Part shown: positions 7,259-35,915 of the stretch, piece after piece
Position numbering within the stretch: position 1 is the stretch's first letter
How the letters are laid out: every line of letters begins with the position of its first letter
NCBI GenBank assembly: GCA_964420015.1
Contig: CAYQPO010000001.1
Span: forward strand, 87,048-151,047
Direction: 5' to 3'
Origin: an uncultured Candidatus Saccharibacteria bacterium
GTDB taxonomy: Bacteria; Patescibacteriota; Minisyncoccia; Phycocordibacterales; SBAW01
DNA: 64,000 bases
Notes under the pieces: generated by a model
Told to the model about the DNA's origin: nothing
The model's input: only the letters and a program-made list of their open reading frames with translations
The model's database searches: none
Position numbers and translations under genes: made by a program

Positions 7259-7279
7259 ACATTGCAAAGTATAGCAGCC

Positions 7280-10451: not shown

Positions 10452-10661
10452 TCACGCGCTGGTCTTTGGGTCGAGGGATTTTCCGTCCCTCGCATCAACG
10501 AGTGAATATTCTTCACTCGCTCGTGCGAGAGCAGTAACTCCTAGTCTTGTAAGACGCAGCAAAGAAGCGCCGATTTTTTCGGCTTGTTCATCGGTCAGCG
10601 AGATACCCTTATCACGAAGAATGATCTCCTTTAGTTCTTTTTTGGCTTCCTGCGATAACAT
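10452..10661 (-). CDS. hypothetical small helical protein (island-borne)
   Basis: 69-aa ATG ORF, MLSQEAKKELKEIILRDKGISLTDEQAEKIG… No family assigned. Confidence 0.3.
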   Translation of the reverse strand: MLSQEAKKELKEIILRDKGISLTDEQAEKIGASLLRLTRLGVTALARASEEYSLVDARDGKSLDPKTSA

Positions 10662-20912: not shown

Positions 20913-22324
20913 AGAAGTTGATTAGTCACCTCATGGTGATAAATTATCTCGGTACGCTTTATGGTCGTACCGAGGGCTTTCGGCGAGCGGTCCGCCGCGG
21001 CCTGCTTATAATGCACGAACTTTTCCTTAGACTCTTCGCCTAAGATTTTCGTGACAAATTTGCTCGCCTTACACAGCGCGATCGCGTCGTAGATATTGTC
21101 GGGCAAAAAGCGCAGGCGCTCGCGCTTGTCCTTGTCTTTATGCAACTTCTCGCCCTCGAGCCCTGTCTTGATCATCGTGTAGAGGAGGAGGTAGGGGTTG
21201 GCATCGGGTGCAACGCTACGCAACTCAATGCGCGCGGTGCGTTCGTTGCCCACGGGGATGCGTATCATCGAACCCCGATCGACGGCCGAAACTTTTATTT
21301 GATTAGGTGCCTCGAAGTGTGGGTCGAGCCGGCGATAGGCGTTGACTGAGGAGTTGATGATGAGGCAGATCTCGGGCGCATGGTTGAGGAGTCGAAGGAT
21401 GAAATCCCACGCAATTTTAGAAAGTCCGTCTTGCCCTTTGGGGTCATAAAATATATTCTTGCCATTTTTACTGAGTGAGAAGTTGGTGTGCATGCCTGAG
21501 CCATTGATGCCCATGAACGGCTTAGGGAGAAAGGTCGCGGTCATCCCCATGTTGCGCGCTACTTGCCGGCAAATGAGCTTGTAGAGTTGAATGTTGTCTG
21601 CGGCCCGTACCACCTCGGCGTAGCTAAAGTTCATCTCAAACTGGCTGGGGGCAACTTCGGGGTGGTCCTTTTCGTTTTTAAAGCCCATCGCGCGCTGAGC
21701 CTCGGCCGCAGCATCAATAAAAAGCCGCAGGCGATCCTGCGGGAGTGAGTGGTAGTATCCACCGGTTGTTATGAGCTTGAACCCCTCCTCTACCCTATAG
21801 TGTTGCTCGCTCGCTATGCCGTCGACCAAAAAACCCTCTATTTCGGGTGCAGCAAAAGCGGTCAAGCCCCCTTCGCGTTTAATCTTTTGCGTGAGTGCGC
21901 GCAGCTGACCGCGAAAGTCGCTGTAGTAGGGCGAGCGGTCACGGTTTAAGACCGAAGCGAAAAAGATCACCTTGCCCGGGCCAAAGATCTCCGAGGGCAT
22001 CCAGCGGATAGAGGAGAAATCGACCTCAAGCCGCAAATCGCTCTCGTGCTGCTGCGTAAAGCCGCGGATAGAACTCCCGTCGAAGGTAAGATTATTAAGC
22101 GAGTCGAGGAGGAACTTCTTGTCATAGTCGAGCATGTGCAGGCGCCCTTCTATGTCGGTAAAGCAGATGGTGACGGCCTTGATGCGTTTCTCTTTCTTGA
22201 GATAGGCAGTGTACTTTTTTTGCAATGCGGCGAAGGTGAGCTTTTCCGCATCCCCTTTTGCTTTGAGGTTGATCTCCTCTAACTTGTCGTACGGGATTTC
22301 GAGAAAATTCTTCAGTCCGGTCAT
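20897..22324 (-). CDS. glnA: glutamine synthetase
   Basis: GSGMHTNFS motif. 475 aa. Overlaps the downstream amt start by 16 nt. Confidence 0.85.
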   Translation of the reverse strand: MTGLKNFLEIPYDKLEEINLKAKGDAEKLTFAALQKKYTAYLKKEKRIKAVTICFTDIEGRLHMLDYDKKFLLDSLNNLTFDGSSIRGFTQQHESDLRLEVDFSSIRWMPSEIFGPGKVIFFASVLNRDRSPYYSDFRGQLRALTQKIKREGGLTAFAAPEIEGFLVDGIASEQHYRVEEGFKLITTGGYYHSLPQDRLRLFIDAAAEAQRAMGFKNEKDHPEVAPSQFEMNFSYAEVVRAADNIQLYKLICRQVARNMGMTATFLPKPFMGINGSGMHTNFSLSKNGKNIFYDPKGQDGLSKIAWDFILRLLNHAPEICLIINSSVNAYRRLDPHFEAPNQIKVSAVDRGSMIRIPVGNERTARIELRSVAPDANPYLLLYTMIKTGLEGEKLHKDKDKRERLRFLPDNIYDAIALCKASKFVTKILGEESKEKFVHYKQAAADRSPKALGTTIKRTEIIYHHEVTNQLLWNNF

Positions 22325-22444
22325 TTAAGGATTAATTGGCCAATAATTACTTTAAAATTAATACGAATTAATATTATAGGACTATTAATTAACTGTGGAT
22401 AAGTGTTTGCGCGACACTGAGCCCTTGAGTGTCAAACGAGGGAG

Positions 22445-23605
22445 CTATTTTTTGCTCGTGGTAAGGGTGACCGGCAAGCGGAGCATCCTGGTGACGCTCC
22501 AATCACCAAACGGGTTTACATAGTAGATGTAGAATGAGGACCCAAGTACCAGAGGGTTGCCCCCTGCGGTGTTAAGGAGTGTCGGATAGTAGTATGTGTT
22601 GTTAGGATTTCCTGCGGGGGTAACCGTGGTCGTAGTATTCCAATTGCTGATACCGTCTTGGGAGAACGTAATGTTTATGCTATTCCAGCCATTGTCGTAG
22701 ACCATGGCGTACTGATTAATGGTGGAGACGTAGGCAACATTCGGGTCCCAGCAGGTGCCACTGCAGGGGAAGATAGTGCTAAAGGCCCCGCCGCCGTTTT
22801 GAGGATTGGCGAGATCGGTCACGCCGGGTTGGCTAAATGATCCGTTGTAATATTTTTTGAATACCGTCCCTGCGCCAGAGGTAAACGGCGCTCCTGCCTG
22901 AGCGGCTGCAATGAGCGCAGAGAGTGGTGCGCGGGCCGTGGCCATTTGAAAGCCCGAGCAGTTAGTGCCCATGTCGTTGTAGTACACATAGAGGTACCCA
23001 TCGCCTTTTGAAACGAGTGTGCCGGGGCCCACGTCGATCTGGCAATTATTTGCACGAGCTGTTTGCGGGGCGATCACCTGGCCAAGTTTGTGCCATGTGG
23101 TGCCATGGTCTGCAGAGTAGGCAAGCCCCAGACCCGCATAGAACGGAGTCCCTGAAGTTGGAGAGTACCAGTACTCGCCGTGATAGAGCTGAAGCAACAG
23201 ATTGCTCTTTGCATCAAAGTAGAGGGCTCCTCCGCCTGCATAGTTTTGATCAAAACTACCCGAAGCACCGCGCGCAATGTTTGTAGCAATAGTTATTTTT
23301 GAAATGGTGGTGGTGCTGTTTATGTTGCTCCAGGTCCAACACAATGAGTTGAGGTTAAGGCCGTCGGGAGCGCAGAAAAAGTTGGTTGTGCCCATTTGAG
23401 TTGCTCCAAGTGTCCCATCGGGGGCGTAGATATTTCCAAACGTTGCGGCTCGCTGCGAGGGCGTCATGAGCAGTTGTGAAGAGCCGACGTTTACCGTTAG
23501 AGTACCGGCCTCAGCACTATGAGACAGACCAAGTAATGCAACCACACCGACCGTACAAACTATTAAAATCAAAAACAGGTGTCCTTTAAAATTCTGCATG
23601 CACAT
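22445..23605 (-). CDS. secreted BNR/Asp-box repeat (sialidase-like beta-propeller) protein
   Basis: Signal peptide. Asp-box YSADHGTTW (SxDxGxTW). Rich in Gly, Thr, Asn and Tyr. Confidence 0.55.
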   Translation of the reverse strand: MCMQNFKGHLFLILIVCTVGVVALLGLSHSAEAGTLTVNVGSSQLLMTPSQRAATFGNIYAPDGTLGATQMGTTNFFCAPDGLNLNSLCWTWSNINSTTTISKITIATNIARGASGSFDQNYAGGGALYFDAKSNLLLQLYHGEYWYSPTSGTPFYAGLGLAYSADHGTTWHKLGQVIAPQTARANNCQIDVGPGTLVSKGDGYLYVYYNDMGTNCSGFQMATARAPLSALIAAAQAGAPFTSGAGTVFKKYYNGSFSQPGVTDLANPQNGGGAFSTIFPCSGTCWDPNVAYVSTINQYAMVYDNGWNSINITFSQDGISNWNTTTTVTPAGNPNNTYYYPTLLNTAGGNPLVLGSSFYIYYVNPFGDWSVTRMLRLPVTLTTSKK

Positions 23606-23731
23606 ATGCTAGCACTACTCGGGCTCCTCAGGTAGGACACGAAACCACAAGGGAGCTGCTCTACCCTATTTATGCAAGCTTCATGTTTGCTTCTGCTATA
23701 CTAAAAAGACTATTGGATAACTAACAATGCT

Positions 23732-24070
23732 ATGAAAAAGTACTTTGTGTTGTATATGGCGAGCGAGGGCGACTTTAAAAAAGCGATGGCGCAGATGCCT
23801 ACGATGACCGAGGCAGAGCGCAAAGCGTCGATGGACGAGTGGATGGTGTGGATGAAGAGTAAGGGTGGCGTCGTCGACATGGGTGCACCTTTGGGCAAGA
23901 CCAAACGGGTGACGCCAAGCGCTATAGCCGACGCACGCAACGAAATAGGCGGCTACTCGATCGTCGAGGCCCAGAGCCACGAGGAGGCTGCTCAAAAGAT
24001 GCAAGACAGCCCGCACTTCAAGATGATCCCCGGCGGGTGGATCGAGGTGATGGAGATCATGCCGATGTAG
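23732..24070 (+). CDS. hypothetical small protein (YciI/Dabb-like size)
   Basis: 112-aa ORF. No confident motif. Confidence 0.4.
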   Translation: MKKYFVLYMASEGDFKKAMAQMPTMTEAERKASMDEWMVWMKSKGGVVDMGAPLGKTKRVTPSAIADARNEIGGYSIVEAQSHEEAAQKMQDSPHFKMIPGGWIEVMEIMPM

Positions 24071-24083
24071 TGAGTCGGCCTTG

Positions 24084-24413
24084 CTACTTAGTTTTACTGA
24101 GAACCCATTTTTGTGATGGGCTGAGTGGCTTGTCGTTGCGGTGCATGCAGCCGGCCCAGCAACAAGGTCGGCGCATGCCGCCTTTCAATTTTGAGAGGGC
24201 TTTTTTGATGCGGATGCTGCGCGTCTCGAGCTTTTTACCCGAGATGACCCAACAAATCCACTCGCTGCGCGCGAGCGGCGTGATGTCGTTCCACACCACA
24301 AGTGATTTAGGGCTCGCCGCGAGCGCTGCGCGCAAATCTGGGGGCAGTGTGTGTACGGTGCTGGTAGTAGCAACGGTCGTCATATCAAGCATCCTATCAC
24401 CTACATCGTGCAC
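24084..24413 (-). CDS. YdeI/OmpD-associated (DUF1801-like) family protein
   Basis: …LARSEWICWVISGKKLETRSIRIKKALSKLKGGMRRPCCWAG… The start may be the internal Met (MTTVATT) at 24383. Confidence 0.5.
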   Translation of the reverse strand: MHDVGDRMLDMTTVATTSTVHTLPPDLRAALAASPKSLVVWNDITPLARSEWICWVISGKKLETRSIRIKKALSKLKGGMRRPCCWAGCMHRNDKPLSPSQKWVLSKTK

Positions 24414-24469
24414 AAAAAGTTAATGCTACACTTTTAGTACGGCCGCGCTTCCTTGCGCATGGTGGCCGG

Positions 24470-24835
24470 ATGCACACCAGGAGCAGCAGCATGATCATCC
24501 GCGCATGGGTAGCGGGAGCAGTGCTCTTGGCTACGCCGGCATGGGCAGACTCACCCGAAACGACTCCGCCTAAACCAGCGGGCCGCTATGTTGAGTTTTC
24601 TGTCGACGGAGGCAAAACCTTTGTCAGCACGAGACTCACCAGCGTCGAGTACTGGTTTAAAAAGGGGCAGCTGGTCTTCCGCACTGACCGGTGGAAACAT
24701 ACGACCCCAAGGGAGTTTAGAAATTTCATACGCAAACTGCACCGGCCTCCCACGATCGACTTCAGATCGACCGTGGCCGGCGCAGGAGTGCACGACCAGC
24801 CGCCGCAGGCGGTTGCGACTATCCCAGTGCGCTAG
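24470..24835 (+). CDS. hypothetical secreted protein
   Basis: Signal peptide …AVLLATPAWADSP. Confidence 0.4.
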   Translation: MHTRSSSMIIRAWVAGAVLLATPAWADSPETTPPKPAGRYVEFSVDGGKTFVSTRLTSVEYWFKKGQLVFRTDRWKHTTPREFRNFIRKLHRPPTIDFRSTVAGAGVHDQPPQAVATIPVR

Positions 24836-24865
24836 GGCACCGGGTAACACTTCTGGAGGATCGGG

Positions 24866-25132
24866 ATGAAGAAGCATCTGTTGATTGCGGCTCTGGCAGC
24901 GCTGGCGCTGAACAGCTCTCTGCCGGCGCAGGCCAACGACGCCGACAAAACGGCTCACAATGTCGCCGCGGAGGCGAACCGTGACGCCAAGGCTGCGGCC
25001 CGCGAGTACGATCGTACAGTCGACTGGGTCGGCCGGCGGCTCGAAGGCAATGCAAAGACGCTCGAGCGAGCTGGCGAGAGCATCAGCCAGTTTGCCAAGC
25101 ACCTTGGCCGACACCGCGACCAAAACAAGTAG
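24866..25132 (+). CDS. hypothetical small secreted protein
   Basis: Signal peptide MKKHLLIAALAALALNSSLPAQA. Followed by an intrinsic terminator. Confidence 0.45.
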   Translation: MKKHLLIAALAALALNSSLPAQANDADKTAHNVAAEANRDAKAAAREYDRTVDWVGRRLEGNAKTLERAGESISQFAKHLGRHRDQNK

Positions 25133-25140
25133 CACAAACA

Positions 25141-25175
25141 AGCCCCGGCCATTCGGCCGGGGCTTTCGGTGTTTT
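25141..25175 (+). terminator. rho-independent terminator AGCCCCGGCC-ATTC-GGCCGGGGCT + T-tract
   Basis: Perfect 10-bp GC stem plus TTTCGGTGTTTT. Near-identical to the hairpin at 49704. Confidence 0.7.
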
Positions 25176-25274
25176 GGAACGCGGCAAAATAGCCCCGTTG
25201 GCAAGCCTTTGAGTTTTGTCTATACTGCGGGCGGATTGAGCCGAATTTCATAGCCTGCAACCAAGGAGCGTGCA

Positions 25275-26582
25275 ATGCTTAACGTCCCGAACTTGTCTGA
25301 TGCGTCGCTCCTCGTGCTGCGGCGGATCGAACACTATCTCACGCGGTGGAAGGAGTTCCCCACCCCGTTTGCACTGACCAACGAGGAGGCTCCAAACCGT
25401 GCCTGGAAGCAGCGTCAAAAGATCTTGCGCGAATATCATGCACTGGAAAGTGCTCGAGCAATCGCGCGCACGACGCAAGAGTGGTCCACGGGGAGCGTAA
25501 CTGCACTCGGCGCTGAGCTACTACTGCGGCCACCACAGTGTGGGCCAAAAGACCCCATCTTCCGCGACGAAAAAAGAACGGCCCGGCGCCGACACAGGTT
25601 GCGCGGCAAGCTGGCAGAGGTGTTGCGCTTTATTGGTCGCTTCGTGGGGGAGCATGGGCATTTCCCCTCGCCAGTCACGATCACCGAGTACTTGAGCCAC
25701 AAGGTTACCAGCTGGGGGCGCTCGCACACGATCGCCTATCTGCGTAGACTAGAGGATGAAGGGGTCGTCGCCCGCAAGAAAAAGCACAAGCATGCCGCGT
25801 GGGAGAAAGAAGGGTACATCACTCCCAACGGGCAGATCCTCTACGAGACGCTCCCGCTTGAGCACAAGCCTAAGCGAGAGCGGCCCAAGCGCAAAGGAGG
25901 CGGCATTGCAGCAGACGGCGGCACCAAGTTTAAGAATATGCTGCTCTCGGCCGAAAGGCTGGGGTCGGAGATGATCCAATTTGCCGACCGCTACTCCAAA
26001 CTTGGGGCGCGGGTCAAAAAGGGTAACGCGCGGCAACTGGGCTTGCGTATGGCGACCTTTTCGCTCGAGGAGGGTCGCACCTGCTCGCCCGACTGTGGGT
26101 TGCGCAAGATGTGCTACGCGGGCAAGATGTCACTGCAAAAGCGCATCTTGTACGAGGGCACCAAAACCGCAACACTGCTTGCAGAAGAGATGCGGAGGGC
26201 TGGTCCACTGCACTACCGGGTCAACACGGTGGGCGACATCCCGGACTCGGAGTTCTTGCTGATACTCTTTGCAGGGATTGGTACCTCCCTCTCGACCGCC
26301 TTTGGGTATACCCACTGGCAGCCTGAGGACCCGCTCGGAGCGCAGATCCGTGAGTTCTCGGATCGGTACTGGGACTTCTTTGCAATTCGCACAAGCTACG
26401 AGCACGGCTCCCGCAAGCCCTTGCCCGAGCGTGCGGCAGTTGTTATGCCCGAGTTTAGCAAAAAACTGCTCGAGTTGCACAACGCAGTCCCCTGTCCGCA
26501 ACAATTGGGACAGAGCCTCAGTTGTGCCGCCTGCGGCTATTGTTGGAACACGAGGCGTAACGTCGCGTTTCGACATCACTAG
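25275..26582 (+). CDS. hypothetical protein with tandem winged-helix-like N-terminal regions and a Cys-rich C-terminal domain
   Basis: …TITEYLSHKVTSWGRSHTIAYLRRLEDEGVV… HTH-like. C-terminal CSPDCGLRKMCYAG…CPQQ…CAACGYC. Confidence 0.4.
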   Translation: MLNVPNLSDASLLVLRRIEHYLTRWKEFPTPFALTNEEAPNRAWKQRQKILREYHALESARAIARTTQEWSTGSVTALGAELLLRPPQCGPKDPIFRDEKRTARRRHRLRGKLAEVLRFIGRFVGEHGHFPSPVTITEYLSHKVTSWGRSHTIAYLRRLEDEGVVARKKKHKHAAWEKEGYITPNGQILYETLPLEHKPKRERPKRKGGGIAADGGTKFKNMLLSAERLGSEMIQFADRYSKLGARVKKGNARQLGLRMATFSLEEGRTCSPDCGLRKMCYAGKMSLQKRILYEGTKTATLLAEEMRRAGPLHYRVNTVGDIPDSEFLLILFAGIGTSLSTAFGYTHWQPEDPLGAQIREFSDRYWDFFAIRTSYEHGSRKPLPERAAVVMPEFSKKLLELHNAVPCPQQLGQSLSCAACGYCWNTRRNVAFRHH

Positions 26583-26636
26583 TCGACAGCCAACCAACAC
26601 TCCCGGCGCAGCCTCCTTAGGCTGCGCCGGTATCTT

Positions 26637-27125
26637 TTATTTCAGCTTAACCGAGTTGAGCGCGGTGTTAGCCGCCGAAATATCAGCGATGATTGCGACC
26701 AAGCTATTAGAGATGTTGCTCGCATTGCTCGCGGTGATCGCAACTCCTTTAAGCGCCGCAAGGCGGTTTGATGCATCTTTCATCGCTGCAATTGCTGCAT
26801 CCATGTTGTTGCCCTTGGCTGCCGCGACACTAACTGCGAGCGAGAGTTTCGGGACGATCACATCGAGCGCTGCTACCGCGCCTGCGACCTCAGCTGCGGC
26901 CGCAGTGAGTTTGGCCGAGTCGCTGCCGGCAGCTTTAATGTCAGCTGCGGCCTTGTTGGTAATATTGACCACGCCGACGCTCGAGGGTGCTACACCGGCG
27001 TTGTTGGCGTTAGCTGCGGCAGCACCTTGAGAGCCTGCCGACACGCCCGGGATAATCCCCGCCCACCACAAAAGCCCTACAATAATTGCTGCGACGATCA
27101 CACCCCAGATAACCTTTTGAGACAT
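26637..27125 (-). CDS. hypothetical Ala-rich membrane-anchored protein
   Basis: N-terminal TM. Low-complexity A/S/N-rich helical repeats. Confidence 0.4.
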   Translation of the reverse strand: MSQKVIWGVIVAAIIVGLLWWAGIIPGVSAGSQGAAAANANNAGVAPSSVGVVNITNKAAADIKAAGSDSAKLTAAAAEVAGAVAALDVIVPKLSLAVSVAAAKGNNMDAAIAAMKDASNRLAALKGVAITASNASNISNSLVAIIADISAANTALNSVKLK

Positions 27126-27296
27126 ATAAAAAACTTAAAAAATAAATATAAACCCACTCCCCTTCAGTATAGCTTCATATTTATTTCTTGCACTGGGCTT
27201 TGGGGACAGCCAACTGAACTTAACGAACCTTTAATACCAGTCGCTGTAGCATAGGCTCGTGCGCATATTACTCGGCATAAAACCCATTAAAAAATT

Positions 27297-27470
27297 ATGG
27301 CAAACAACACTTCTCGTCGCGGCTTCGCCTCGATGGACAAGGAGAAACAGCGACAAATAGCCAGCAAGGGCGGCAAGGCTGCACACGAGCGCGGCACCGC
27401 GCACGAGTTTAACTCGCGCGAGGCCGCTGAGGCCGGCCGCCTGGGCGGGCTCGCCCGCGGTCGCCGTTAG
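27297..27470 (+). CDS. KGG-repeat general stress peptide (not in the ORF track; 57 aa)
   Basis: MANNTSRRGFASMDKEKQRQIASKGGKAAHERGTAHEFNSREAAEAGRLGGLARGRR. KGG and GG-x-R repeats typical of the YciG/Con-6 family. A terminator hairpin follows. Confidence 0.5.
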   Translation: MANNTSRRGFASMDKEKQRQIASKGGKAAHERGTAHEFNSREAAEAGRLGGLARGRR

Positions 27471-27552
27471 CTACGGCGCAAAACCTGATGCAGAGACCGC
27501 CTTCGCTGTGCGCAGGCGGTTTTTGTAAACAAAAAGCCGGAGTAAAACGAGT

Positions 27553-28896
27553 TCATCGTTTTGCTCCGGCCGCCGGGAAGAAAGCAAGTTGTACCGGCTT
27601 CCCTAATCGCTTGTAGTAACTCTCGGGCAGCTCCAGTTGGGCGAGCTTAGCGAGTTGCACCACCGCGACGAGAAAGTTCCACCCGTAGAAACGCATGGCG
27701 AACGCGATCACATCGCCGTGCGCTTTGCACTTGTGACAATGGAAGGTCTGCAAGATGGGGCTTGCGGTTAGGCTCTGCCCTCGTGCTCGACAAAACGGAC
27801 AGGGCGCCCGCACGCCAGTGGCTTTGGGTGCCCACTGATGCTGCGGCATACACGAACGTACGTAGGGCACCACAGGCACCTTTTGTCGAAGCTCATCGAG
27901 CCATTGCTTGTCGAACCGATATCGCATCTTGCCTTGCGGCTTGGGCGGGCATTTCTGCGCCAAGATCGGCTCGCAGAGCGCGAGCTTTTCTTTGATCGCA
28001 TTGACTCGCTCGGTTCGTATCGCTCCGTCGAAGCGATCCTCCAGCTCCTTAAACCATGCGATCCGCCCCCGCAGCTGCGGGAGCGCTACGTCCAGCAAAC
28101 TATTGCTCAACAACACTTCGAGCTGCCGCTCGAGCGTGTCATAAAAGCCTTTCGTATGCGTAACGCGCTTGCGCCCTAGTTGCACGCCGGTGACCACCAC
28201 TGGGTGCGTGCGTCGATCTCCAGGTGACGTCTTTTTTTCGTTTACCCGGAAACCCGCACGCCCAACGATGTAGCGGATCTGCCCACGCACATAGCGTGGA
28301 ATCTCCGCCGCCGAAGAGAAGTTAAGGTCATCGGCGTAGCGCGTGTAGGTTATCGGCGCGTGCTTGTGCTCTTGGTGATGCGCAAGCAACTGCCCGATCG
28401 GCTCGTCGAGCCAAGAGCGAGCAACGAGCTCAAAGAGCAAAGGAGAACACGGCGCCCCTTGAGCAAGCCCGAGGTTTGGCACCATGCAATAGCGCTCTAC
28501 AAAGTCGATAACCTCCCTTGCCTCCCCAAACCACGGGTCGAGCAACAGAAGTTGTGCCGCCAGCTTGGAGGCCGACACGCTTGGGTAGGCATCTTTTAAG
28601 TCGAGTTGGAAGAAGTAACGATTGAGTTGATGGTCGAGCGCTCCTCGCACAGGAGACTGGCTGATGCCGGGCACCAATTTCTCGATCACTTCGACCAGGT
28701 TTTCGTGCACCGCTCGAAGCTCATCGCTGGGCTTCGAGATCGTTCGCCTTTTGCCCTTTATATTTCGGCGCTTGGTGACAAACGTCAGAGCATCGCGAGG
28801 ATGCCCCGAAAGTAGTTCGGCTATCCTCATTGCATGCTCCTCAGAGAGTGACCGTCCAAAAAGAGTGTAATCGGGCATACCAAAGCAGTCAAACAA
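27553..28896 (-). CDS. retron-type reverse transcriptase fused to a C-terminal DnaG-like CHC2 zinc finger
   Basis: RT motifs FFQLDLKDAY (A), GLAQGAPCSPLLF (B), YTRYADDL (C), HPVVVTGVQL (retron-like VTG). C-terminal CPFCRARGQ…FHCHKCKAHGDVIAF matches the primase CHC2 pattern. TTG start at 28896; the alternative is ATG at 28878. Confidence 0.75.
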   Translation of the reverse strand: MFDCFGMPDYTLFGRSLSEEHAMRIAELLSGHPRDALTFVTKRRNIKGKRRTISKPSDELRAVHENLVEVIEKLVPGISQSPVRGALDHQLNRYFFQLDLKDAYPSVSASKLAAQLLLLDPWFGEAREVIDFVERYCMVPNLGLAQGAPCSPLLFELVARSWLDEPIGQLLAHHQEHKHAPITYTRYADDLNFSSAAEIPRYVRGQIRYIVGRAGFRVNEKKTSPGDRRTHPVVVTGVQLGRKRVTHTKGFYDTLERQLEVLLSNSLLDVALPQLRGRIAWFKELEDRFDGAIRTERVNAIKEKLALCEPILAQKCPPKPQGKMRYRFDKQWLDELRQKVPVVPYVRSCMPQHQWAPKATGVRAPCPFCRARGQSLTASPILQTFHCHKCKAHGDVIAFAMRFYGWNFLVAVVQLAKLAQLELPESYYKRLGKPVQLAFFPAAGAKR

Positions 28897-28929
28897 AAAA
28901 GCTCCGATCTTGATCGGAGCTTTTACCTC

Positions 28930-29270
28930 GAGGCCTGGGGGCCATCAAGACAGTGATGTGGTTGAGGCAACGGCGAAGCCGGTTGCTGATCCTCCCCCTG
29001 GCGGTCGGATCGACATGTGAGACACCACCGATGCCGTCGTGCACCAGGGAGCGACCTCAAGGAGCGACCTGCGGTCGCACTCGAAGCATGCTCAGGGCTC
29101 AAGGCCACCGGGCAGGTGGCTATTGCCGGCACGCGTCCTATGCGCGGGGAGTCCTACGTAGCGTCCTACGAGGTTTACCCCAGAAGACCCTTCAAGCGCA
29201 ACGCCGGAAGGGGCAGTGTAGTAGAAAAGAACATCACGATGGTGCTCATTAAAGAGTTCCCCCAGGCCAA
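28930..29270 (-). ncRNA. candidate retron msr-msd-like structured ncRNA upstream of the RT
   Basis: ~340-bp GC-rich ORF-poor region bracketed by a 10-bp inverted repeat (CCCCCAGGCC 29259..29268 and GGCCTGGGGG 28932..28941). Internal hairpins. A TATAGT -10-like element sits just upstream on the minus strand. Confidence 0.3.
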
Positions 29271-29311
29271 CCGTGTGCACTATACCTCAAATTTCTGCCG
29301 CTCAGCTTATT

Positions 29312-29341
29312 TTGACATAAAGCTCGGCTGTGTGTTATACT
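29312..29341 (+). promoter_or_regulatory. sigma70-type promoter TTGACA-N18-TATACT for the OMP gene
   Basis: Near-consensus hexamers ~50 bp upstream of ATG 29390. GAGGGAAAGGA RBS. Confidence 0.5.
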
Positions 29342-29389
29342 GTAGAGCGGATTGGGCAATCAAGCCCGCCTGAGGGAAAGGACCTTTCT

Positions 29390-30097
29390 ATGAATCGTTC
29401 TCTGTCGGGGGCCTTGGTGGCCCTTTCGCTTTGCTTTGCGGCTCCGGCCACCGCGGCCGACGCTCCGAGCCTCCCGCGTCGCCAGTACGTGCCGGCTAAC
29501 GATTACGTCCGCCAAAACTGGGCGGGCGACTATATCGGCTTGACCGGCAGCTACAGCTGGGGTCGTGCCTCGTCGTGGGACTCCACGACCGGCGGCTTCA
29601 ACTACGGCACACACGGCGGCCTCGGTGGCGTCAGCTACCTGCACTACTGGCAGTTTGGCAACGTGGTCTTCGGACCCGAGGTCACCTGGTCGTGGGGCTC
29701 GGTCAGCGGCAAGAAGATCTTCGACTGCGGCCCGGGCTGCGTGCCTGTTAGCCACGCGAAGATCACTTCGCTCGGCACCGTCGGCGCCAACGTCGGCTAC
29801 GCGCTCGGCGACTTCTTGCCCTACGTCGGCGGCGGGTATGCCCGCGCGTCGACAACGATCCGCTCCGACCTCAACTTGGGCGGCACGACGCTCCTGTCGA
29901 TGACCAGCAGGCAACCGGCCGACGGCTGGTATGCCAAAGCGGGCCTCGAGTACAAGCTGACCGACAACATCACCGTCGGCCTCGCCTACCAGCGGACCGA
30001 GCTGACGCTCTCCGACTTCGGCGACTCGACCGGCTTTCGATCGAGCCAGAAGGCGACCGATAACGCGATCAGAGCCGATCTTCGGCTGCGCTTTTGA
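29390..30097 (+). CDS. outer-membrane beta-barrel protein (OmpA-like/opacity-family barrel)
   Basis: Signal peptide …AAPATAADA. Alternating amphipathic beta strands rich in Gly and aromatics. Ends with the C-terminal …LRLRF OMP signature. Confidence 0.7.
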   Translation: MNRSLSGALVALSLCFAAPATAADAPSLPRRQYVPANDYVRQNWAGDYIGLTGSYSWGRASSWDSTTGGFNYGTHGGLGGVSYLHYWQFGNVVFGPEVTWSWGSVSGKKIFDCGPGCVPVSHAKITSLGTVGANVGYALGDFLPYVGGGYARASTTIRSDLNLGGTTLLSMTSRQPADGWYAKAGLEYKLTDNITVGLAYQRTELTLSDFGDSTGFRSSQKATDNAIRADLRLRF

Positions 30098-30119
30098 GCT
30101 GATCGCACGCACTACAAAA

Positions 30120-30147
30120 GGCCCGGGACTTCTCCCGGGCCTTTTTG
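30120..30147. terminator. bidirectional intrinsic terminator GGCCCGGGA-CTTC-TCCCGGGCC flanked by A/T tracts
   Basis: Lies between the convergent OMP and SWIB genes. Confidence 0.7.
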
Positions 30148-30166
30148 TGCGTCAAAAACGCTCTGT

Positions 30167-30424
30167 TTATTTGAGGTGCCCGGAGACGAGCTTAGTCATC
30201 TCGAACATGGTTACCTCCCCTTTACCGCCGAACACTTTCTTAAGCTTGTCATCGGCCAAAATATTGCGCTTATTTTTGGGGTTTTGGAGATCATGCTTCT
30301 TGATGTAATCCCAGATCTTTTTAACTACCTCCCCGCGCGACATTGGACCCTTCCCTACCACCGCCTCGAGGTCAGCCGAGAGGTGCATAGGTTTGAGCAG
30401 TGCCGGATTTGCTTGCCTTGCCAT
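30167..30424 (-). CDS. SWIB/MDM2 domain protein
   Basis: …GPMSRGEVVKKIWDYIKKHDLQNPKNKRNILADDKLKKVFG… is the SWIB fold consensus. Start taken at MARQ. Confidence 0.7.
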   Translation of the reverse strand: MARQANPALLKPMHLSADLEAVVGKGPMSRGEVVKKIWDYIKKHDLQNPKNKRNILADDKLKKVFGGKGEVTMFEMTKLVSGHLK

Positions 30425-30677
30425 TCTTTTATTCAAATAATTGATTAATTTCGCACAGCGCCAGTATAGCACTCCCCTAGGGAGTGCCTAGAGGGCCCTG
30501 TGGGCAGGGCTTCACCCCCACCTCAGGCGCAACGGCCTACACTTTTTGTTATGGAACTCGTCTTGGTATGCAGGCAGTGCGGCCACACCGAGCGCGGCGA
30601 GAGCGCCCGAGGCTTAATGGTCAAGGTTCGCATGCTCAACCATCTCAACCGAGCCCACCCCGACGAGGTCGAGTCGT

Positions 30678-31472
30678 TTACACACTCGGTCGAGCAGACG
30701 CAACCCTCGTCACACTAAAGCTCGCGCCGTCTTGCCCCAGCACCGAGGGCGCCGCTAGTGCGCTCCCAAAGTGGCTATAGAGCGAAAGTGGGGTCGCGCC
30801 CGCGCTCTCGGGCGTGGTGGCGATGCCATCTTTAACTGCGCCTGCTGCACGAAACACCACTGCCCCAAAGTCGACCAGGGGCAAGAGCCCAACATGCCGC
30901 CCCCCAACCACCAGCGGGCTTTCTTCGACCCAATTGGCCGAGGAGTGTTCCGAGTGATAGGTAACCGTGCGTACACTTTGTTTGTCGGTTGTGTTGTTTA
31001 CAAAGAGTATCTGCCAGGTATCGGTCCCCACTTCGGTAAGAGCGACCGTGATCGAGTCGCCGGCCGACACCGAAAGTGGCGCCACTTGCGACACCTCTGG
31101 CAAGGTCTCGTACCAAGTCTCGTACTCGACCTGGCCGTTTTCGGTCATGCTTTGTGTGCCGGCTTGGATCAAATCATCGCTCTCTACCCCACCGATCCCC
31201 ACCCAGGTTGCCTCGCCAGCAAGTGAGTGCGCTGCAAGGACCTGCGGCACCCGCCACGTTGCTGAGACTGCCGTGTAGGTACCCTGGTTGGCAATGTATC
31301 CGGCCCAGTTGTACGAGGCGGCAGTGGTCGTTGCAAGCGGCGCATAAAACGCTGGCTGGCTGTTGCCCTCAAGCAAGGTGGCAGAGCTCCCGGGTGAGTT
31401 ACCCAAAAAAACTGCTGCAACACTGAGGAGCACACCTATGGAGAGCAGCTTAAGAAGCTGGGGCGCGCGCAT
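30678..31472 (-). CDS. secreted peptidase G1 (eqolisin / scytalidoglutamic peptidase)-like protein
   Basis: Signal peptide. SYNWAGY matches the G1 N-terminal SxNWAG. TWVGIGG and …NWVEES… resemble the Q/E catalytic-region motifs. Confidence 0.55.
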   Translation of the reverse strand: MRAPQLLKLLSIGVLLSVAAVFLGNSPGSSATLLEGNSQPAFYAPLATTTAASYNWAGYIANQGTYTAVSATWRVPQVLAAHSLAGEATWVGIGGVESDDLIQAGTQSMTENGQVEYETWYETLPEVSQVAPLSVSAGDSITVALTEVGTDTWQILFVNNTTDKQSVRTVTYHSEHSSANWVEESPLVVGGRHVGLLPLVDFGAVVFRAAGAVKDGIATTPESAGATPLSLYSHFGSALAAPSVLGQDGASFSVTRVASARPSV

Positions 31473-31556
31473 GCAGACACGCTACCAAACCACATAAAAA
31501 GAAAAGGTGAAGCCTCTTGCGCTTGGAGCTTTTTTCAGACAATCTTCACTGCAACC

Positions 31557-33668
31557 GTGATGGCATACCTTATCGGCCGCATGCACTACCTCCGCGCACT
31601 CTTTTCGCGCTCCTACCTTGCCCGCTTTGTTGCAATCGTAGCGGTCCATGCAAGCATCGTCGAGCTCAGCCTGTTTTTGGTGCCGCCCAATCTCCCCGGC
31701 GCATCGTTAGTCTGGCCTCCCTCGGCAGTCGGCTTGGCATTTTTGTGGTTTTGGGGGTTAGAGATGTGGCCCGCGCTCGTGGGCGCGTTTTTTGCCGTGC
31801 TGCTGGCAAACGGTATCTCGCCGCCCCTGGTTGCAACCACAGCGCTGGGCAACGCGCTGGAGGCATTGATCGGCGCGTTTATACTGCGGTACTATCTCGA
31901 TTTCGATCCGATGCTCTGGCGCCTGCGCGACGCATTGGGGCTCATTGTTGCCGCGTTTTTGGCTGCGCTCGCCTCGGCGACAATCATCTCGCTGGGTGTT
32001 GGGCTCATCTTACACGACGGGACGCCCTCGTCAGTGTTATGGTTGGGACTCTGGATCGGGCATACTGTCTCGATCATCACCTTCGGGCCATTTGCATTGC
32101 GTTGGTTTCATAAACCGTACTTCACTCGCACGCGCAATGAATGGATCGAGGGCATGATTGGCTTTGGTGTGTTAATCGCGCTCAGCTTTTTGATGAGCTG
32201 GACTCCGTACACCACGATCGGCGGCATACCGCTCCTGTACGTAGCGGTCATGGTGCTCATCTGGGTGGCCCTGCGCACCGGCCCGCGTGGCATTGCCTTT
32301 GCGCTTTTGGTCTTTGCGCTCATCCTTTCGACCGGCGTACTCTATGGGCACGCTTTACAATCACCAAGTGCTGATCCCCGCCAAATACTGTTTGGGGTTC
32401 AGATGATCATTGGTGTGCTCTCGCTTATCTTTTTGCTCTTTACCTCAATCACCGAGGAGCGCAAGGAGGCCGTGATCGCCCTTGAGGCTCACGTGGGCCA
32501 GCTTGAAGGGGCACTACAAAAAATCAGCAGCGAAGACCAGGCCAAGACCGACTTTATCGCGATCCTCGCACACGAGCTGCGCAACCCCCTTTCTCCCATA
32601 GTCTCCGCCCTCGAGCTCATCAAGCATAACGGCATAGAACCTGAAAACGAAAAGCTGGTGACGAGCATCGCCTCGCATGTCCACACCATGGCGCGGCTTT
32701 TGGACGACTTATTGGACATATCCCGCATCTCGCTCAAGCGCCTTAAACTCCAAAAAGAACCTGTGGAGATTCGTTCGGTCTTTGAGCGGGCACTCGAAAT
32801 GGTGCACCCACAAATTGAAGCGCGTGGGCATCGGCTTGCGGTTGAACTCCCCCAAGAAGAAATCTGGCTTCATGGTGATCCGGTGCGTTTAGGACAAATC
32901 TTCGTCAACCTGCTCAACAACGCGGCTAAATATACTGAGCAAGGCGGAGCGCTTAGTCTCAAGGCAAAACGCGATGGCCCGACCCTTGTGGTCGAGGTCC
33001 GCGACAGCGGCATAGGGATCTCACCCGATCGTCTAAGTGCTATTTTTGAGCCCTTTGGCGGCGACACGCCGGCGCGCGGATCGGCGGGACTCAGAATTGG
33101 TCTCTCCCTTGCCAAGCGCATGGCGCAGATGCACCACGGTACTCTCGAGGCCCATTCGGCGGGCGAAGGCAAAGGCTCCCAGTTTGTCGTGAGGCTCCCA
33201 CTTCCTACCAATATGCCCTTACCACTCCACGAAAACCCCAAACGTGTCCGCAGTCGCTTTTCGCGCGAAACGCTTGCACGGAGTGCTGCCAGAGACGAGC
33301 GGCTCAAAATTTTGGTTGTCGATGACAACGAAGCGGCTGCACAAAACCTTGGTCGTTTGCTTGAGCTCGGCGGCCACACTACTGCGATCGCGTATGATGC
33401 GCCACAGGCGCTTGCGCTTGCACGGCGTCTAGAACCCCATGTGGCGCTTCTCGACATCGGACTGCCGAGCATGGACGGCTACCAACTTGCAAAAGAGCTG
33501 CAAGTGCTCTTGCCGCAAATACAGTTGGTTGCTATTACAGGCTTTGGCCAGGCCGAGGACCGCCAAAGGGCTAGAGAAGCAGGCTTTGAAGAACATATGG
33601 TAAAACCAGTCTCCATTGTCGATGTCGAGCGTGTGCTCGGCGAGTTGCGCAATGGCGACACGTCCTAA
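31557..33668 (+). CDS. hybrid sensor histidine kinase / response regulator with polytopic N-terminal membrane domain
   Basis: ~8 TM. HisKA H-box IAILAHELRNPLSPI. HATPase (…GIGISPD…GLSLAKRMAQMHHG…). C-terminal receiver (LKILVVDDNE…LLDIGLPSMDG…). Confidence 0.8.
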   Translation: MMAYLIGRMHYLRALFSRSYLARFVAIVAVHASIVELSLFLVPPNLPGASLVWPPSAVGLAFLWFWGLEMWPALVGAFFAVLLANGISPPLVATTALGNALEALIGAFILRYYLDFDPMLWRLRDALGLIVAAFLAALASATIISLGVGLILHDGTPSSVLWLGLWIGHTVSIITFGPFALRWFHKPYFTRTRNEWIEGMIGFGVLIALSFLMSWTPYTTIGGIPLLYVAVMVLIWVALRTGPRGIAFALLVFALILSTGVLYGHALQSPSADPRQILFGVQMIIGVLSLIFLLFTSITEERKEAVIALEAHVGQLEGALQKISSEDQAKTDFIAILAHELRNPLSPIVSALELIKHNGIEPENEKLVTSIASHVHTMARLLDDLLDISRISLKRLKLQKEPVEIRSVFERALEMVHPQIEARGHRLAVELPQEEIWLHGDPVRLGQIFVNLLNNAAKYTEQGGALSLKAKRDGPTLVVEVRDSGIGISPDRLSAIFEPFGGDTPARGSAGLRIGLSLAKRMAQMHHGTLEAHSAGEGKGSQFVVRLPLPTNMPLPLHENPKRVRSRFSRETLARSAARDERLKILVVDDNEAAAQNLGRLLELGGHTTAIAYDAPQALALARRLEPHVALLDIGLPSMDGYQLAKELQVLLPQIQLVAITGFGQAEDRQRAREAGFEEHMVKPVSIVDVERVLGELRNGDTS

Positions 33669-34315
33669 GATTTTATTACTCCGTACACCACCAAGCGTTC
33701 GTCATACGTCTTCTGTCCCGCGATCCACACACCTTCGCACGTTATTAAATTGAGCCGTGCTTGATCTGCACGATTAAACAACAGCTCGGTCGGCACCGCT
33801 TGGTATGGATAGGTGGCGATTTCGCTCACCACAAAGCGCCGCACGCTCGAACTCGCCGTAACCACATCGATCTCGTCGCCCACTGCGATATCGCTCAAAT
33901 GTTTAAACACGCCAGGGAGTGCCAACCCGTTATCAACATGGCCGTCCATCACCGCGCTTCCTACAAACCCGGGTACCGTGCCCGCTTTGTACCATGCGAC
34001 GTCGGTAAAGTTACTCGGTACCGCCATCGCGCCACTTTTAGCGATCCCCACATACTGGATGTGTGCATCGAGGTTCAGTCTCGGAATTCGTAAGCGCACA
34101 GGCAAGTCGCCCCCAACTGCTACTTGTTTTGACACAGGCTGTATTGCCGCCTCGGGTTCGTTTTCGGGAGCAATAGTTGCGCGCGCGAGCGTATAGACAA
34201 AAACGCCCACACCGCCCACGAGGAGTAGCGCGGCGATAAGCGTTTTAGGAGAAGTCTTCACGGGAGCTGTAAGCGTAGCGACGCGGACTGAAACAGACGT
34301 GAATATTATGCCCAA
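33665..34315 (-). CDS. sortase (class F-like transpeptidase)
   Basis: N-terminal TM. …LRIPRLNLDAHIQYVG…GHVD…NLITCEG… carries the conserved His, the TLxTC Cys and the downstream Arg region. Confidence 0.7.
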   Translation of the reverse strand: MGIIFTSVSVRVATLTAPVKTSPKTLIAALLLVGGVGVFVYTLARATIAPENEPEAAIQPVSKQVAVGGDLPVRLRIPRLNLDAHIQYVGIAKSGAMAVPSNFTDVAWYKAGTVPGFVGSAVMDGHVDNGLALPGVFKHLSDIAVGDEIDVVTASSSVRRFVVSEIATYPYQAVPTELLFNRADQARLNLITCEGVWIAGQKTYDERLVVYGVIKS

Positions 34316-34768
34316 CTAGTACCAGCCAAAATACTGCAGCGCTTTGCGCACTACCCACACAGTAAAGAGCGCCAAGAGGAGGGAGGCCAGAATGTCGACT
34401 AAGTAATGGAGTCCTGCCGCGACGCGCGCAAACCCGATCAAAAACGCAAGGATCCAGAGCGCCAATCCAGAGCGCACGTCGGCGATCCAAGCGACGCTTG
34501 CCAAAATGCTGCTTGCAAGCATATGGTCTGAAGGAAAGCTGTTATCAATGTCATGCGGCACAAGCGGCGTAAACCCTTCTTGAGCAAATGGTTGCGGGTG
34601 GCTAAAGAAGAGCCCTGCAACGCGCGCGAGCGCATACCCAACCGCAAGAGAAACGACCGCGAGAAGTGCGAGCCGATTGCGATGCGGCGAGACGAGCACC
34701 ACTGCCACTGCACCGAGCGCCACAATATAGATAAGGTATTTTGCTCCAAAAATAATGAGTGCGTCCAT
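34316..34768 (-). CDS. PAP2-family phosphatase (membrane)
   Basis: FPSDHM and RVAAGLHYLVD match the PAP2 motifs PSGH and SRxxxxxHxxxD. Confidence 0.65.
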   Translation of the reverse strand: MDALIIFGAKYLIYIVALGAVAVVLVSPHRNRLALLAVVSLAVGYALARVAGLFFSHPQPFAQEGFTPLVPHDIDNSFPSDHMLASSILASVAWIADVRSGLALWILAFLIGFARVAAGLHYLVDILASLLLALFTVWVVRKALQYFGWY

Positions 34769-35915
34769 AGCTCTTATGATACCTCACAGACAAAACGCCC
34801 CGCGGCAAGCCGCGGGCGTTCGAATCGGTGGTATGATCCCTGCCATGGGCTTTATAAATTACGAGTATTTGCGGCCAATAAACGAGCCGGTATGGTTTGC
34901 TGCGCTCCATATGCGTAACGCGCTGCGCAGGCGCGCTGCGCAAAGTAATAATGCGACACTGATTATCAACGTGAGTCTTATCGGTGAATTTGCGGCCTCG
35001 CTTCCTGCCATGCACGCACTGATGGAGCAGTGCCCCGGCCCGGTCGATCTTCTCGTCTCTCCCCCACTGCGCTCGCTCGCCGAGCGCGTGCGCGGTGTGC
35101 GCAAAGTCTATACCGCAAGCTCCTCATTTAAACGCGCCGGCGAGCGAGGCAGCGAGATGCTTCCCTCAGCGCAGTACGACACTATCGTCGCCTTCCGGAT
35201 GAGCGCAGGGGCATACCACGCACTTAGTCGTGTACAGGCAGAGCATGTGCGCAGCGGTCTTACACACGTTGTCTCCTATGGATTTCATATAGGTTGGAGC
35301 ATGGCCCGCGGCAAAACGCCCATGAGCCTTCGAGAACATTCTTTTAAGATCGCACACTTGTCCGACAGAAAGCCAACCCTCAAAGAGCTTTTTAATTTTA
35401 CCGACGAAGAATATGCCTTGGGCAAAGCGCGTGTGGGGAGTGGGCCCGTGGTAGCAATACACACCGGAGCATCGTGGGTGCGCAATAGTTGGCCCCTTGA
35501 GAATTGGGCGGCGCTACTCGTCCTCCTGCATACCCATGGGTACATTACAGCGCTTGTCGGTACGCAAAAAGAGCAGGCTGATTTCGACGCATTGCAAACA
35601 ATGCTCCCTTTTCCTATCCGCTCACTCGTTGGCTTGCCGCTCCCAGAGCTACTGCCAACACTTGTTGCTTGCAAGGCATTTATCGGCGTAGACTCCGGGC
35701 CACGAAACCTCGCGCATCTTTGCGACCTTCGGAGCGTAACCTTGCTAGGACCAGCGCCGCACCTCTTTACCCCACACGATAAGCGCGACCGGGTGCTTGA
35801 TAAATCTGGAGGCCGGCGTGTACTTGAACGTTATATAAAGACAAAGGGCAAAAGTTTAATGGAACAGCACACGCCGCAAGAAGTGTTCGAGCAATTTATG
35901 CAGCTGCCCCAATAG
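34755..35915 (+). CDS. glycosyltransferase family 9 (LPS heptosyltransferase-like)
   Basis: …IINVSLIGEFAASLPA…WPLENWAALL…FIGVDSGPRNLAHL… The true start is probably an internal Met (34833 or 34845). Confidence 0.6.
   Translation: MSASIALMIPHRQNAPRQAAGVRIGGMIPAMGFINYEYLRPINEPVWFAALHMRNALRRRAAQSNNATLIINVSLIGEFAASLPAMHALMEQCPGPVDLLVSPPLRSLAERVRGVRKVYTASSSFKRAGERGSEMLPSAQYDTIVAFRMSAGAYHALSRVQAEHVRSGLTHVVSYGFHIGWSMARGKTPMSLREHSFKIAHLSDRKPTLKELFNFTDEEYALGKARVGSGPVVAIHTGASWVRNSWPLENWAALLVLLHTHGYITALVGTQKEQADFDALQTMLPFPIRSLVGLPLPELLPTLVACKAFIGVDSGPRNLAHLCDLRSVTLLGPAPHLFTPHDKRDRVLDKSGGRRVLERYIKTKGKSLMEQHTPQEVFEQFMQLPQ

Follow-up and report, generated by a model that had tools for sequence, protein, structure and literature searches.

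The locus

We analysed a 64,000-nucleotide (nt) stretch of DNA, hereafter the window, from an uncultured Candidatus Saccharibacteria bacterium (assembly GCA_964420015.1, contig CAYQPO010000001.1, positions 87,048 to 151,047 of the forward strand). Its minus strand carries a gene that fuses a reverse transcriptase (RT) to the zinc-binding domain (ZBD) of the primase DnaG and, in the 559-nt gap between the start of this gene (28830) and a divergent outer-membrane protein (OMP) gene, a conserved structured RNA encoded on the RT strand; on the other side the fusion gene meets a convergent KGG gene. A previous, sequence-only reading of this DNA had described the convergent KGG gene, the divergent OMP gene and the lack of an adjacent effector gene correctly, and had missed the partner RNA in the gap.

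The open reading frame (ORF) at 27553..28896 on the minus strand, with its stop at 27553, encodes the previously described protein of 447 amino acids (aa) when started at TTG 28896. The ORF is there as described; its genuine start, judged from sequence comparison, is almost certainly ATG 28830, giving a protein of 425 aa (MRIAELL...), because this start matches the called protein P0001 of public assemblies and the N-terminus common to all homologues, which begin with MR[IL]xEL at the equivalent position. The 22 additional codons of the TTG-started frame overlie the predicted tail of a terminator and a promoter. The features of the gene are as follows.

27553..28830 (-): coding sequence of the RT-zinc-ribbon fusion, 425 aa, identical to P0001; stop codon 27553-27555
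28156..28830 (-): RT fingers and palm, residues 1-225, with H67 (GALDH), D77 (motif A), D167/D168 (YADD) and VTG at 213-215
27946..28155 (-): RT helical thumb, residues ~226-295, from the profile alignment to Ec86 RT and the helices of an AlphaFold2 model
27622..27909 (-): DnaG-type ZBD, residues ~308-403, with ligands C344, C347, C365 and C368 (codons of C344 at 27799-27801 and of C368 at 27727-27729)
28837..28842 (-): Shine-Dalgarno sequence GAGGAG, spaced 6 nt from the ATG, from direct inspection of the sequence

A retron-type RT fused to a primase finger

Pfam recognised two domains in the fusion protein, RVT_1 (47.4 bits against a cut-off of 29.6, residues 44-225) and Zn_ribbon_DnaG (PF01807; 49.6 bits against 24.9, E=3.5e-13, residues 330-425), and no other domain above threshold, with no Toprim, maturase or hydrolase among its matches. 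The motifs quoted in the sequence-only reading are all present: LDLKDAY, QGAPCSPLLF, YADD, VVVTGVQL and CPFC...FHCHKCKAHGDVIAF. The fused module is the whole primase ZBD, with the helix in front of the ribbon, and the NCBIfam dnaG model TIGR01391 matches over its positions 2-97 of 414 alone, leaving no Toprim. A C-terminal DnaG finger lacking a Toprim domain, as proposed earlier, is therefore borne out by PF01807 and by the match to the DnaG structure 1D0Q; its ligands in the window protein are four cysteines, CxxC...CxxC with FHCHKCKAHGDVIAF as the second part after CPFC, and not the C-H-C-C of the canonical site.

The AlphaFold2 model, built on the family alignment (pLDDT 91, pTM 0.72), has long helices at residues 227-241, 247-266 and 274-293, all with high pLDDT, and a short low-confidence linker around residues 301-303. 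The helical stretch of ~90 aa, previously taken for a linker and a candidate effector, is largely the thumb of a retron RT, because the family profile aligns to Ec86 RT through position ~294; the proposal of an effector in this region does not survive that alignment.

By profile scores and predicted fold, the RT is retron-type and belongs in the retron clade. We searched a family profile made from 45 members against all PDB sequences. The best match was retron Ec86 RT (6.9e-36, profile positions 15-294), followed by the Ec83, Ec78, Eco7 and Ec67 RTs, with Ec86, Ec83, Ec78 and Ec67 together ranging from 7e-36 to 5e-28. Other RTs scored far lower: group II (GsI-IIC) 2e-10, the defence-associated RTs (DRTs) DRT2 1.6e-7 and DRT9 2.4e-6, and diversity-generating retroelement (DGR) RT 1.4e-5. 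Positions 309-403 of the same profile matched the DnaG ZBD of Geobacillus stearothermophilus (1D0Q) at 2.2e-33, and Aquifex aeolicus DnaG (2AU3) was matched at 7e-25. In a Foldseek search of the AlphaFold2 model against the PDB the 13 top matches were all retron RTs, with DRT2 and DRT9 RT-RNA complexes among the further hits. The assignment to retron-type rather than group II RTs made in the sequence-only reading is upheld by this preference for Ec86 (7e-36 against 2e-10), by the Foldseek ranking and by the lack of intron RNA in the Rfam scan.

Within the retron clade the family fits no one type. The best PADLOC matches of the window protein were the retron RT models II-A, III-A and VI (E~1e-25) and its best NCBIfam match was retron_St85_RT, at 104 bits below the cut-off of 235. 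The canonical members of the family matched all PADLOC retron RT types at a similar level (~60-110 bits), none a clear winner, and matched the PADLOC models RT_UG29 and RTasDnaG-like across the finger alone (in RT_UG29, profile positions ~6-102 of 2280). Type-specific features of retron types I-XIII were likewise missing: the NCBIfam type models scored far below their cut-offs and none of the listed effectors was present at the locus.

A rare and divergent family

A word-indexed search returned the window protein itself and two relatives at ~44% identity only, and a word-indexed search with the family profile gave 16 matches, few of them named. An exhaustive HMMER search of 1.84 billion representatives yielded ~50 clusters at 50% identity whose proteins, of 390-450 aa, matched the profile end to end, which supplies the homologues of the same fusion that the sequence-only reading had proposed to look for. 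Beneath these clusters ranked ordinary retron RTs of ~300 aa, matching over the RT core only. Members diverge down to ~27% identity with ORFs intact; the family is rare and patchy in occurrence, most clusters having a single member or a few. The named relatives come from Candidatus Saccharibacteria metagenome-assembled genomes (MAGs), a Candidatus Kaiserbacteria genome (OGG55025.1 / A0A1F6D0X8) and a MAG labelled KSB1; Saccharibacteria and Kaiserbacteria are candidate phyla in the NCBI taxonomy.

The catalytic aspartates D77, D167 and D168 are invariant in the 45 aligned members. The retron motif NAxxH has its N in 44 of them and its H (H67) in all 45, the sole exception being the window protein itself, with G at residue 63 (GALDH; codon 28642-28644). 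In the VTG motif, which in the window protein reads VVVTGV, T214 is kept in 42 members and G215 in 44. Most members carry a recognisable DnaG signature, GLCPFHxEKTPSFxV...FYHCFGCGxHGDVIxF, with ligands C-H-C-C in 29 of 45 and four cysteines in five (the branch of the window protein); one has altered spacing, and ten have lost three or four ligands. Conservation of the finger's cysteines, by which the earlier claim was to stand or fall, is thus partial, the four-ligand site being kept in 35 of 45 members and lost in the others. As far as these residues tell, polymerase chemistry is under selection family-wide, and a fifth of the family can dispense with zinc binding as such.

Individual relatives depart from the common plan. 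The protein P0175 (locus L114, 8001-9317; 42% identity) has YVDG at the catalytic motif on four independent contigs, the nearest relative, L116, keeping YVDD; from its sequence, P0175 may be a polymerase-dead copy that still keeps RNA, terminator and promoter. P0044 (558 aa) has two tandem DnaG-type ZBDs after the RT, with two CPFx...FYHCFGCGAHG motifs. A Saccharibacteria RT of 430 aa (L007/L020, 4603-5895) shares with the family a motif A of YFYQLDLKDAF and an ITG, at 31% identity over the RT core, and has a differing C-terminal region with no cysteine pairs; sequence likeness suggests that it may represent a sister family with another fused module.

A structured RNA upstream of the RT gene

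The following elements lie in the gap between the RT and OMP genes.

29279..29284 (-): candidate -10 box TATAGT, putatively of the RNA's own promoter
~29272 to ~28890 (-): predicted full transcript of the partner RNA
28932..29268 (-): partner RNA core, 337 nt, from P1 5' arm to P1 3' arm
29259..29268 (-): P1 5' arm GGCCUGGGGG, pairing with 28932-28941
29232..29242 (-): P2 5' arm CCAUCGUGAUG, paired with 28942-28958 in the minimum free energy (MFE) fold
29215..29231 (-): G-free, pyrimidine-rich tract UUCUUUUCUACUACACU, directly 3' of the P2 5' arm
28942..28958 (-): P2 3' arm CAUCAC(UGUCUU)GAUGG
28932..28941 (-): P1 3' arm CCCCCAGGCC
28897..28924 (-): intrinsic terminator hairpin, 12 bp with a 4-nt loop, then a T-rich tail; predicted 3' end of the RNA
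28864..28892 (-): promoter-like site TTGACT-N17-TACACT between terminator and RT gene, putatively driving the latter

Read 5' to 3' on the minus strand, the order is thus -10 box, P1 5' arm, a small hairpin, P2 5' arm, G-free tract, ~250 nt of hairpins, P2 3' arm, P1 3' arm, terminator with U-tail, RT promoter-like site, Shine-Dalgarno sequence and ATG. An RNA of this kind, 240-390 nt long, lies upstream of the RT gene and on its strand in all 15 distinct loci with readable upstream DNA, in at least 10 gene neighbourhoods.

Its transcription signals recur with it. Most Saccharibacteria-type loci have a TATAGT or TATACT box 7-45 nt ahead of the P1 5' arm. In the window a consensus scan independently reported the terminator and the RT promoter-like site but missed the -35 box of the RNA, which is weak there. 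A hairpin followed by a T-run occupies the equivalent position in 13 of 13 loci tested, and in L114 and L116 also, and TTGACx-N17-TACACT (or a similar -10 box) is at the equivalent position in every other locus read.

The window RNA folds at an MFE of -154 kcal/mol (z=-3.7 against shuffles) into about six hairpins. Four of the RNAs were folded singly; the ends paired in all four, at energies 2.7-3.7 standard deviations under those of dinucleotide shuffles. The 3' part contains long hairpins, and its 3' third is more variable in one close pair of loci (L114/L116) and not in the other two pairs.

The closing helices are maintained by changes on both sides. The P1 arms are GGCCUGGGGG and CCCCCAGGCC in the window, L002, L003 and L006, AGCCGGGGGAGC and GCUCCCCCGGCU in L013-L017, GGCCUGGAGAG and CUCUCCAGGCC in L033, GGUCUGGG and CCCAGGCC in L027, and GGUUUGGGGUC and GACCCCAAGCC in L031. 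A curated alignment of P1 and P2 has standard pairs in 97.2% of its cells and two-sided changes in 9 of its 19 pairs: 6 of 12 in helix 1, where 98.9% of cells are paired, and 3 of 7 in helix 2. None of 500 shuffles scored as high, and pairing fell to 36-50% when the partner was shifted by 1-3 columns; L114 and L116 contribute further compensatory changes in both helices. As far as comparative sequence goes, the P1/P2 closing helix is like the a1/a2 helix of retrons.

A second feature is the tract that follows P2. In all eight Saccharibacteria-type RNAs compared (window, L002, L003, L006, L013, L015, L017 and L033) the longest stretch free of G begins immediately after the P2 5' arm, is 14-42 nt long and is rich in CUA or CUAC; it is short in L033, and much reduced, nearly absent, in L114 and L116. 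The tract may be a single-stranded site for protein binding or templating.

Rfam gave the partner RNA no match at gathering threshold in a scan of the whole window, and chance hits on the terminator only when E values up to 10 were admitted over 28800-29400. The sole gathering-threshold matches in the window were a LOOT RNA (RF03000, 80 bits, function unknown) at 11053-11168 (+) and a tRNA at 8241-8312 (+). A stop-free reading frame consistent across the RNAs, in the manner of the DRT2 'neo' gene, was looked for and none was found.

Genomic setting

The RNA-RT pair sits among housekeeping genes with conserved order. One neighbourhood, with a MASE1 histidine kinase and with an OMP gene adjoining the pair, is common to the window, L002 and L016, whose RTs are just 35-44% identical; PAP2, sortase, Peptidase_A4 and SWIB genes are further features that the window and L002 have in common. 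In L003, L006 and L114 the pair adjoins S30AE, SET, SWIB, def, fmt and mreB. In Kaiserbacteria and the 'KSB1' MAG the order is ComEC, RNA-RT, RNase H, an interval, RecJ, HIT, PGK, TIM; in these loci (L027-L031, ~5000-11500) ComEC flanks the pair on one side and a convergent RNase H gene on the other, RecJ follows two genes on, and the arrangement is kept with RTs 41% identical. ComEC, RNase H and RecJ all act on single-stranded DNA or RNA-DNA hybrids.

Across such syntenic loci the RT evolves fast. Where RTs are 44% identical, six of eight neighbours are 64-92% identical (the exceptions being the OMP, at 31%, and a 162-aa protein, at 50%), and where RTs are 41% identical, five of six neighbours are 56-66% identical (HIT, 42%). 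This pattern points to an old, fast-evolving resident of the chromosome rather than to cargo of defence islands.

Among the neighbourhoods examined we found no effector gene common to the loci: not one gene recurs in every context, and none looks like a known effector. Nor did the RT-ZBD neighbourhoods examined contain defence genes. IMG/VR viral contigs yielded ordinary retron-type RT cores and no RT-ZBD fusion, and on that ground we rejected a phage origin. The label 'defence-associated' given in the sequence-only reading consequently lacks contextual support, the family lying in housekeeping loci of conserved order, away from defence genes and viral contigs.

Several neighbours of the window gene merit description. 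The KGG gene, which encodes a small stress protein, lies downstream of the RT in the window (27297-27470, +) and upstream of the RNA in the syntenic L002 (9290-9478), a change of side that indicates local rearrangement or re-insertion of the RNA-RT module. A 435-aa protein encoded ~1 kb from the RT (25275-26582, +) ends in a Cys-rich domain resembling DUF7227/GP88 (Pfam E=3e-5, below its cut-off; phrog_2554 E=1e-9). In L114/L115 (L114, 9434-10864) the gene that comes directly after the RT, on its strand, is a 52%-identical GP88-like homologue. We considered this gene as a partner of the RT and treat it as local synteny, since tblastn found it absent from the other family loci searched. OMP beta-barrel genes (PF13505) lie a few genes from a sortase on the window's own contig, and eukaryote-like SWIB and SET genes also occur in these presumed Saccharibacteria genomes (window 29390-30097, +, and 30167-30472, -; L114 10923-11645), an odd mix of envelope-type and chromatin-type genes for the lineage.

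Proposed mechanism and alternatives

We favour, at a probability of roughly 0.6, a two-component retron-like ribonucleoprotein (RNP) in which a retron-clade RT with a C-terminal ZBD works with a structured RNA of ~340 nt that is separately transcribed upstream. The RNA ends would pair in the long closing helix P1+P2, equivalent to a1/a2; the RT, expressed from its own promoter, would bind this RNA in trans and copy part of its more variable 3' region, probably next to P2/P1, into single-stranded cDNA of the multicopy single-stranded DNA (msDNA) type; and the ZBD would grip the single-stranded product or the G-free RNA tract, taking the place of the third component (the sensor/effector partner) of classical retrons. 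The ZBD of primases binds single-stranded template, and CTA is a template triplet recognised by several bacterial primases; we speculate that the CUA-rich, G-free tract is a ligand of the fused ZBD. By analogy with retrons, a role in conflict or phage defence is a plausible default, and it fits because the RT evolves faster than most of its neighbours.

A number of observations weigh against this RNP. No cDNA or msDNA has been observed. With about six hairpins, the RNA exceeds a classical msr-msd in length and branching, and a predicted terminator and separate promoter split it from the RT gene, where the textbook retron has a single msr-msd-ret transcript. We sought a branching G and a template segment in the RNA and identified neither. 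The P1/P2 alignment is hand-curated from 9-11 related sequences and leans towards the proposed structure, and unsupervised alignment with MAFFT/RNAalifold misaligned the 3' ends of the RNAs, and its consensus was uninformative. Defence systems are not usually found in a housekeeping context at a conserved position. Finally, 10 of 45 members have lost three or four of the ligands, which implies that zinc binding is not essential to the domain's role, and the close relative P0175 has YVDG in place of YVDD.

Two bolder versions of the retron-like RNP can be considered together, and we hold them unlikely, though worth stating. In one the ZBD would be the output module: disturbance of the RNA-cDNA complex, for which phage nucleases or methylases would be candidates, would free the ZBD to engage single-stranded DNA or DnaG/DnaB and stall lagging-strand priming at the primosome, arresting phage and host replication together with no toxin enzyme. 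In the other the system would be a vertically inherited, cDNA-making RNP specific to the candidate phyla radiation (CPR), with a non-immune role of feeding DNA into replication, repair or transformation, at which the ComEC-RNase H-RecJ setting in Kaiserbacteria hints. Either, if true, would be a retron function without precedent.

A distinct and rather improbable explanation is that the fusion is a domesticated replication or repair factor. The RT-ZBD would make a short DNA from its RNA and, with its finger, dock on the single-stranded DNA of forks, gaps or DNA entering by transformation, handing over the cDNA as primer or patch by analogy with the hand-off of primers by the primase ZBD. The housekeeping loci with conserved gene order and no defence genes speak for it, as do the ComEC/RNase H/RecJ arrangement held despite 41% RT identity, the fusion of an entire primase ZBD, the invariant catalytic residues and the lack of any member among viral contigs. 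Yet the family is rare and patchy, with ~50 clusters among 1.84 billion representatives, and its RT outpaces most neighbours in divergence, a behaviour more characteristic of conflict genes. Ten of 45 members have lost zinc ligands, one member has YVDG, and the ComEC/RNase H/RecJ adjacency is confined to one subclade. To our knowledge, moreover, all experimentally characterised retrons are defence systems.

We consider it doubtful, and more so than the replication or repair role, that the system works in the manner of DRT2 or DRT9, with the closing helix joining the ends of a template, for example the G-free CUAC-rich tract, so that repeated copying by rolling-circle or repeat-addition synthesis would yield a long repetitive cDNA that is itself the effector or encodes one. 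Such a mechanism would suit a two-component system of RT and RNA with no effector gene, an RNA that is its own transcription unit with conserved end-closing helices, and a G-free CUAC tract next to a helix, and DRT2/DRT9 complexes were among the Foldseek matches. It is opposed by the profile scores (retron RT 6.9e-36, DRT2 1.6e-7, DRT9 2.4e-6), by the lack of a consistently stop-free frame across the RNAs, and by the tract itself, which is short in L033 and nearly absent in L114/L116.

We give very little credence to the idea that the gene is a decaying, non-functional relic, formed when an RT gene picked up the 5' end of dnaG by accident, and that its 'RNA' is GC-rich intergenic DNA. The G at the near-invariant N of NAxxH in the window protein, the YVDG of P0175 and the ten members with lost ligands would fit such decay. 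Against it, the ORF stays intact at 390-450 aa in ~50 clusters down to ~27% identity with invariant catalytic aspartates, the RNA helices are kept by compensatory changes, terminator and promoter are kept in every locus, and conservation of a functionless 560-nt spacer would be unexpected in compact CPR genomes.

A group II intron or other mobile retroelement, to which the core bears a weak likeness (TIGR04416, 22.8 bits, E=4e-5, cut-off 300), has next to no chance of being correct, and a DGR is rejected with it, because retron RTs match at least 25 orders of magnitude better, DGR RT scores just 1.4e-5, the Rfam scan of the whole window at gathering threshold found no Intron_gpII RNA, there is no maturase or endonuclease, no template/variable direct repeats of at least 40 nt occur in 22000-35000, and the gene is single-copy at a conserved chromosomal position.

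Ultra-small bacteria of the candidate phyla are generally poor in known defence systems. All characterised retrons known to us pair an RT-msDNA module with a cell-killing effector; the only extra part of the present family beyond a retron-like RT and a closed RNA is a small, primase-derived, nucleic-acid-binding finger, in a long-term chromosomal resident. New retron-type fusions are a recurring kind of discovery. If cDNA is made, the retron repertoire would gain a new type, and a new large class of structured RNA, outside Rfam and specific to Patescibacteria-type genomes, would come with it; the question of toxin-free retron action as opposed to non-immune use would be raised; and a compact single protein of ~410-450 aa with a trans-acting RNA transcribed on its own would be attractive for retron-based tools for DNA production.

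Comparison with known systems

Mestre et al. 2020 (PMC7736814) distinguished 13 retron types, none with a DnaG finger, the sole zinc finger being the SWIM finger of the type XIII accessory protein. The hallmarks given there are the NAXXH motif (H most conserved), the VTG motif (G most conserved), a1/a2 pairing and a single transcript, with an msr of 1-3 short hairpins, an msd of one or two long hairpins, and a conserved branching G with an opposing G (Mestre et al., 2020; PMC7736814). The present family has the RT clade, NAxxH, VTG and an adjacent RNA with pairing ends. The single transcript, a typical and not a definitional trait, is predicted from sequence not to hold in any locus, read-through being possible.

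Classical retrons (Ec86/Eco1 of type II-A; Ec78 and Ec83 of type I) resemble the family in RT clade, in motifs of the NAxxH and VTG kinds, in the thumb and in an upstream, same-strand RNA with paired ends. Unlike them, the family has no accessory effector gene and has a DnaG ZBD fused to the thumb; its RNAs, at 240-390 nt with about six hairpins, compare with ~150-250 nt for msr-msd, and it occupies a syntenic housekeeping position in candidate-phylum bacteria, whereas classical retrons lie in prophages or defence islands. Retrons fused into a single gene, namely type I-C (Ec67/Eco2, RT-Toprim), XI (RT-protease), XII (RT-TIR) and VII-A1 (RT-DUF3800), likewise carry their third component as a C-terminal fusion, and the Toprim of type I-C is also derived from primases or topoisomerases; their fused domains, however, are potentially cell-killing enzymes (nuclease, protease, NADase), and the family's is a zinc ribbon of ~95 aa with no known catalysis.

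The only published associations of an RT with a CHC2 DnaG finger that we found are those of UG/Abi class 3 (UG29, fused; UG6 and UG24, with a primase gene). These differ in having their own RT clade, a finger with Toprim at the N-terminus or in a separate gene, lengths of up to ~2500 aa and a hydrolase/phosphohydrolase effector domain. With DnaG primase the family shares the full N-terminal ZBD and, in most members, CPFHxEKTPSF...FYHCFGCGxHGDxIxF; it lacks the Toprim RNA-polymerase and helicase-binding domains of DnaG and, in the branch of the window protein, has Cys for the His ligand. DRT2 and DRT9 are alike in combining an RT with a dedicated structured RNA and no toxin gene, so that product DNA could be the output, and unlike in RT clade, in the lack of a stop-free frame in the family's RNAs and in having no zinc ribbon.

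We found no description of the RT-ZBD architecture in the full-text literature searched, PADLOC, NCBIfam, Rfam, the retron types or the DRT classes, as the sequence-only reading had anticipated in recognising no known retron type or DRT class; two recent retron surveys do not mention it, and Mestre et al. 2020 was compared by its classification of types. We file the family as retron-like because RT clade, motifs and closed RNA are present, while type-specific features are absent and a single transcript is predicted not to hold. The RT-ZBD with its RNA appears to be an undescribed retron-like type.

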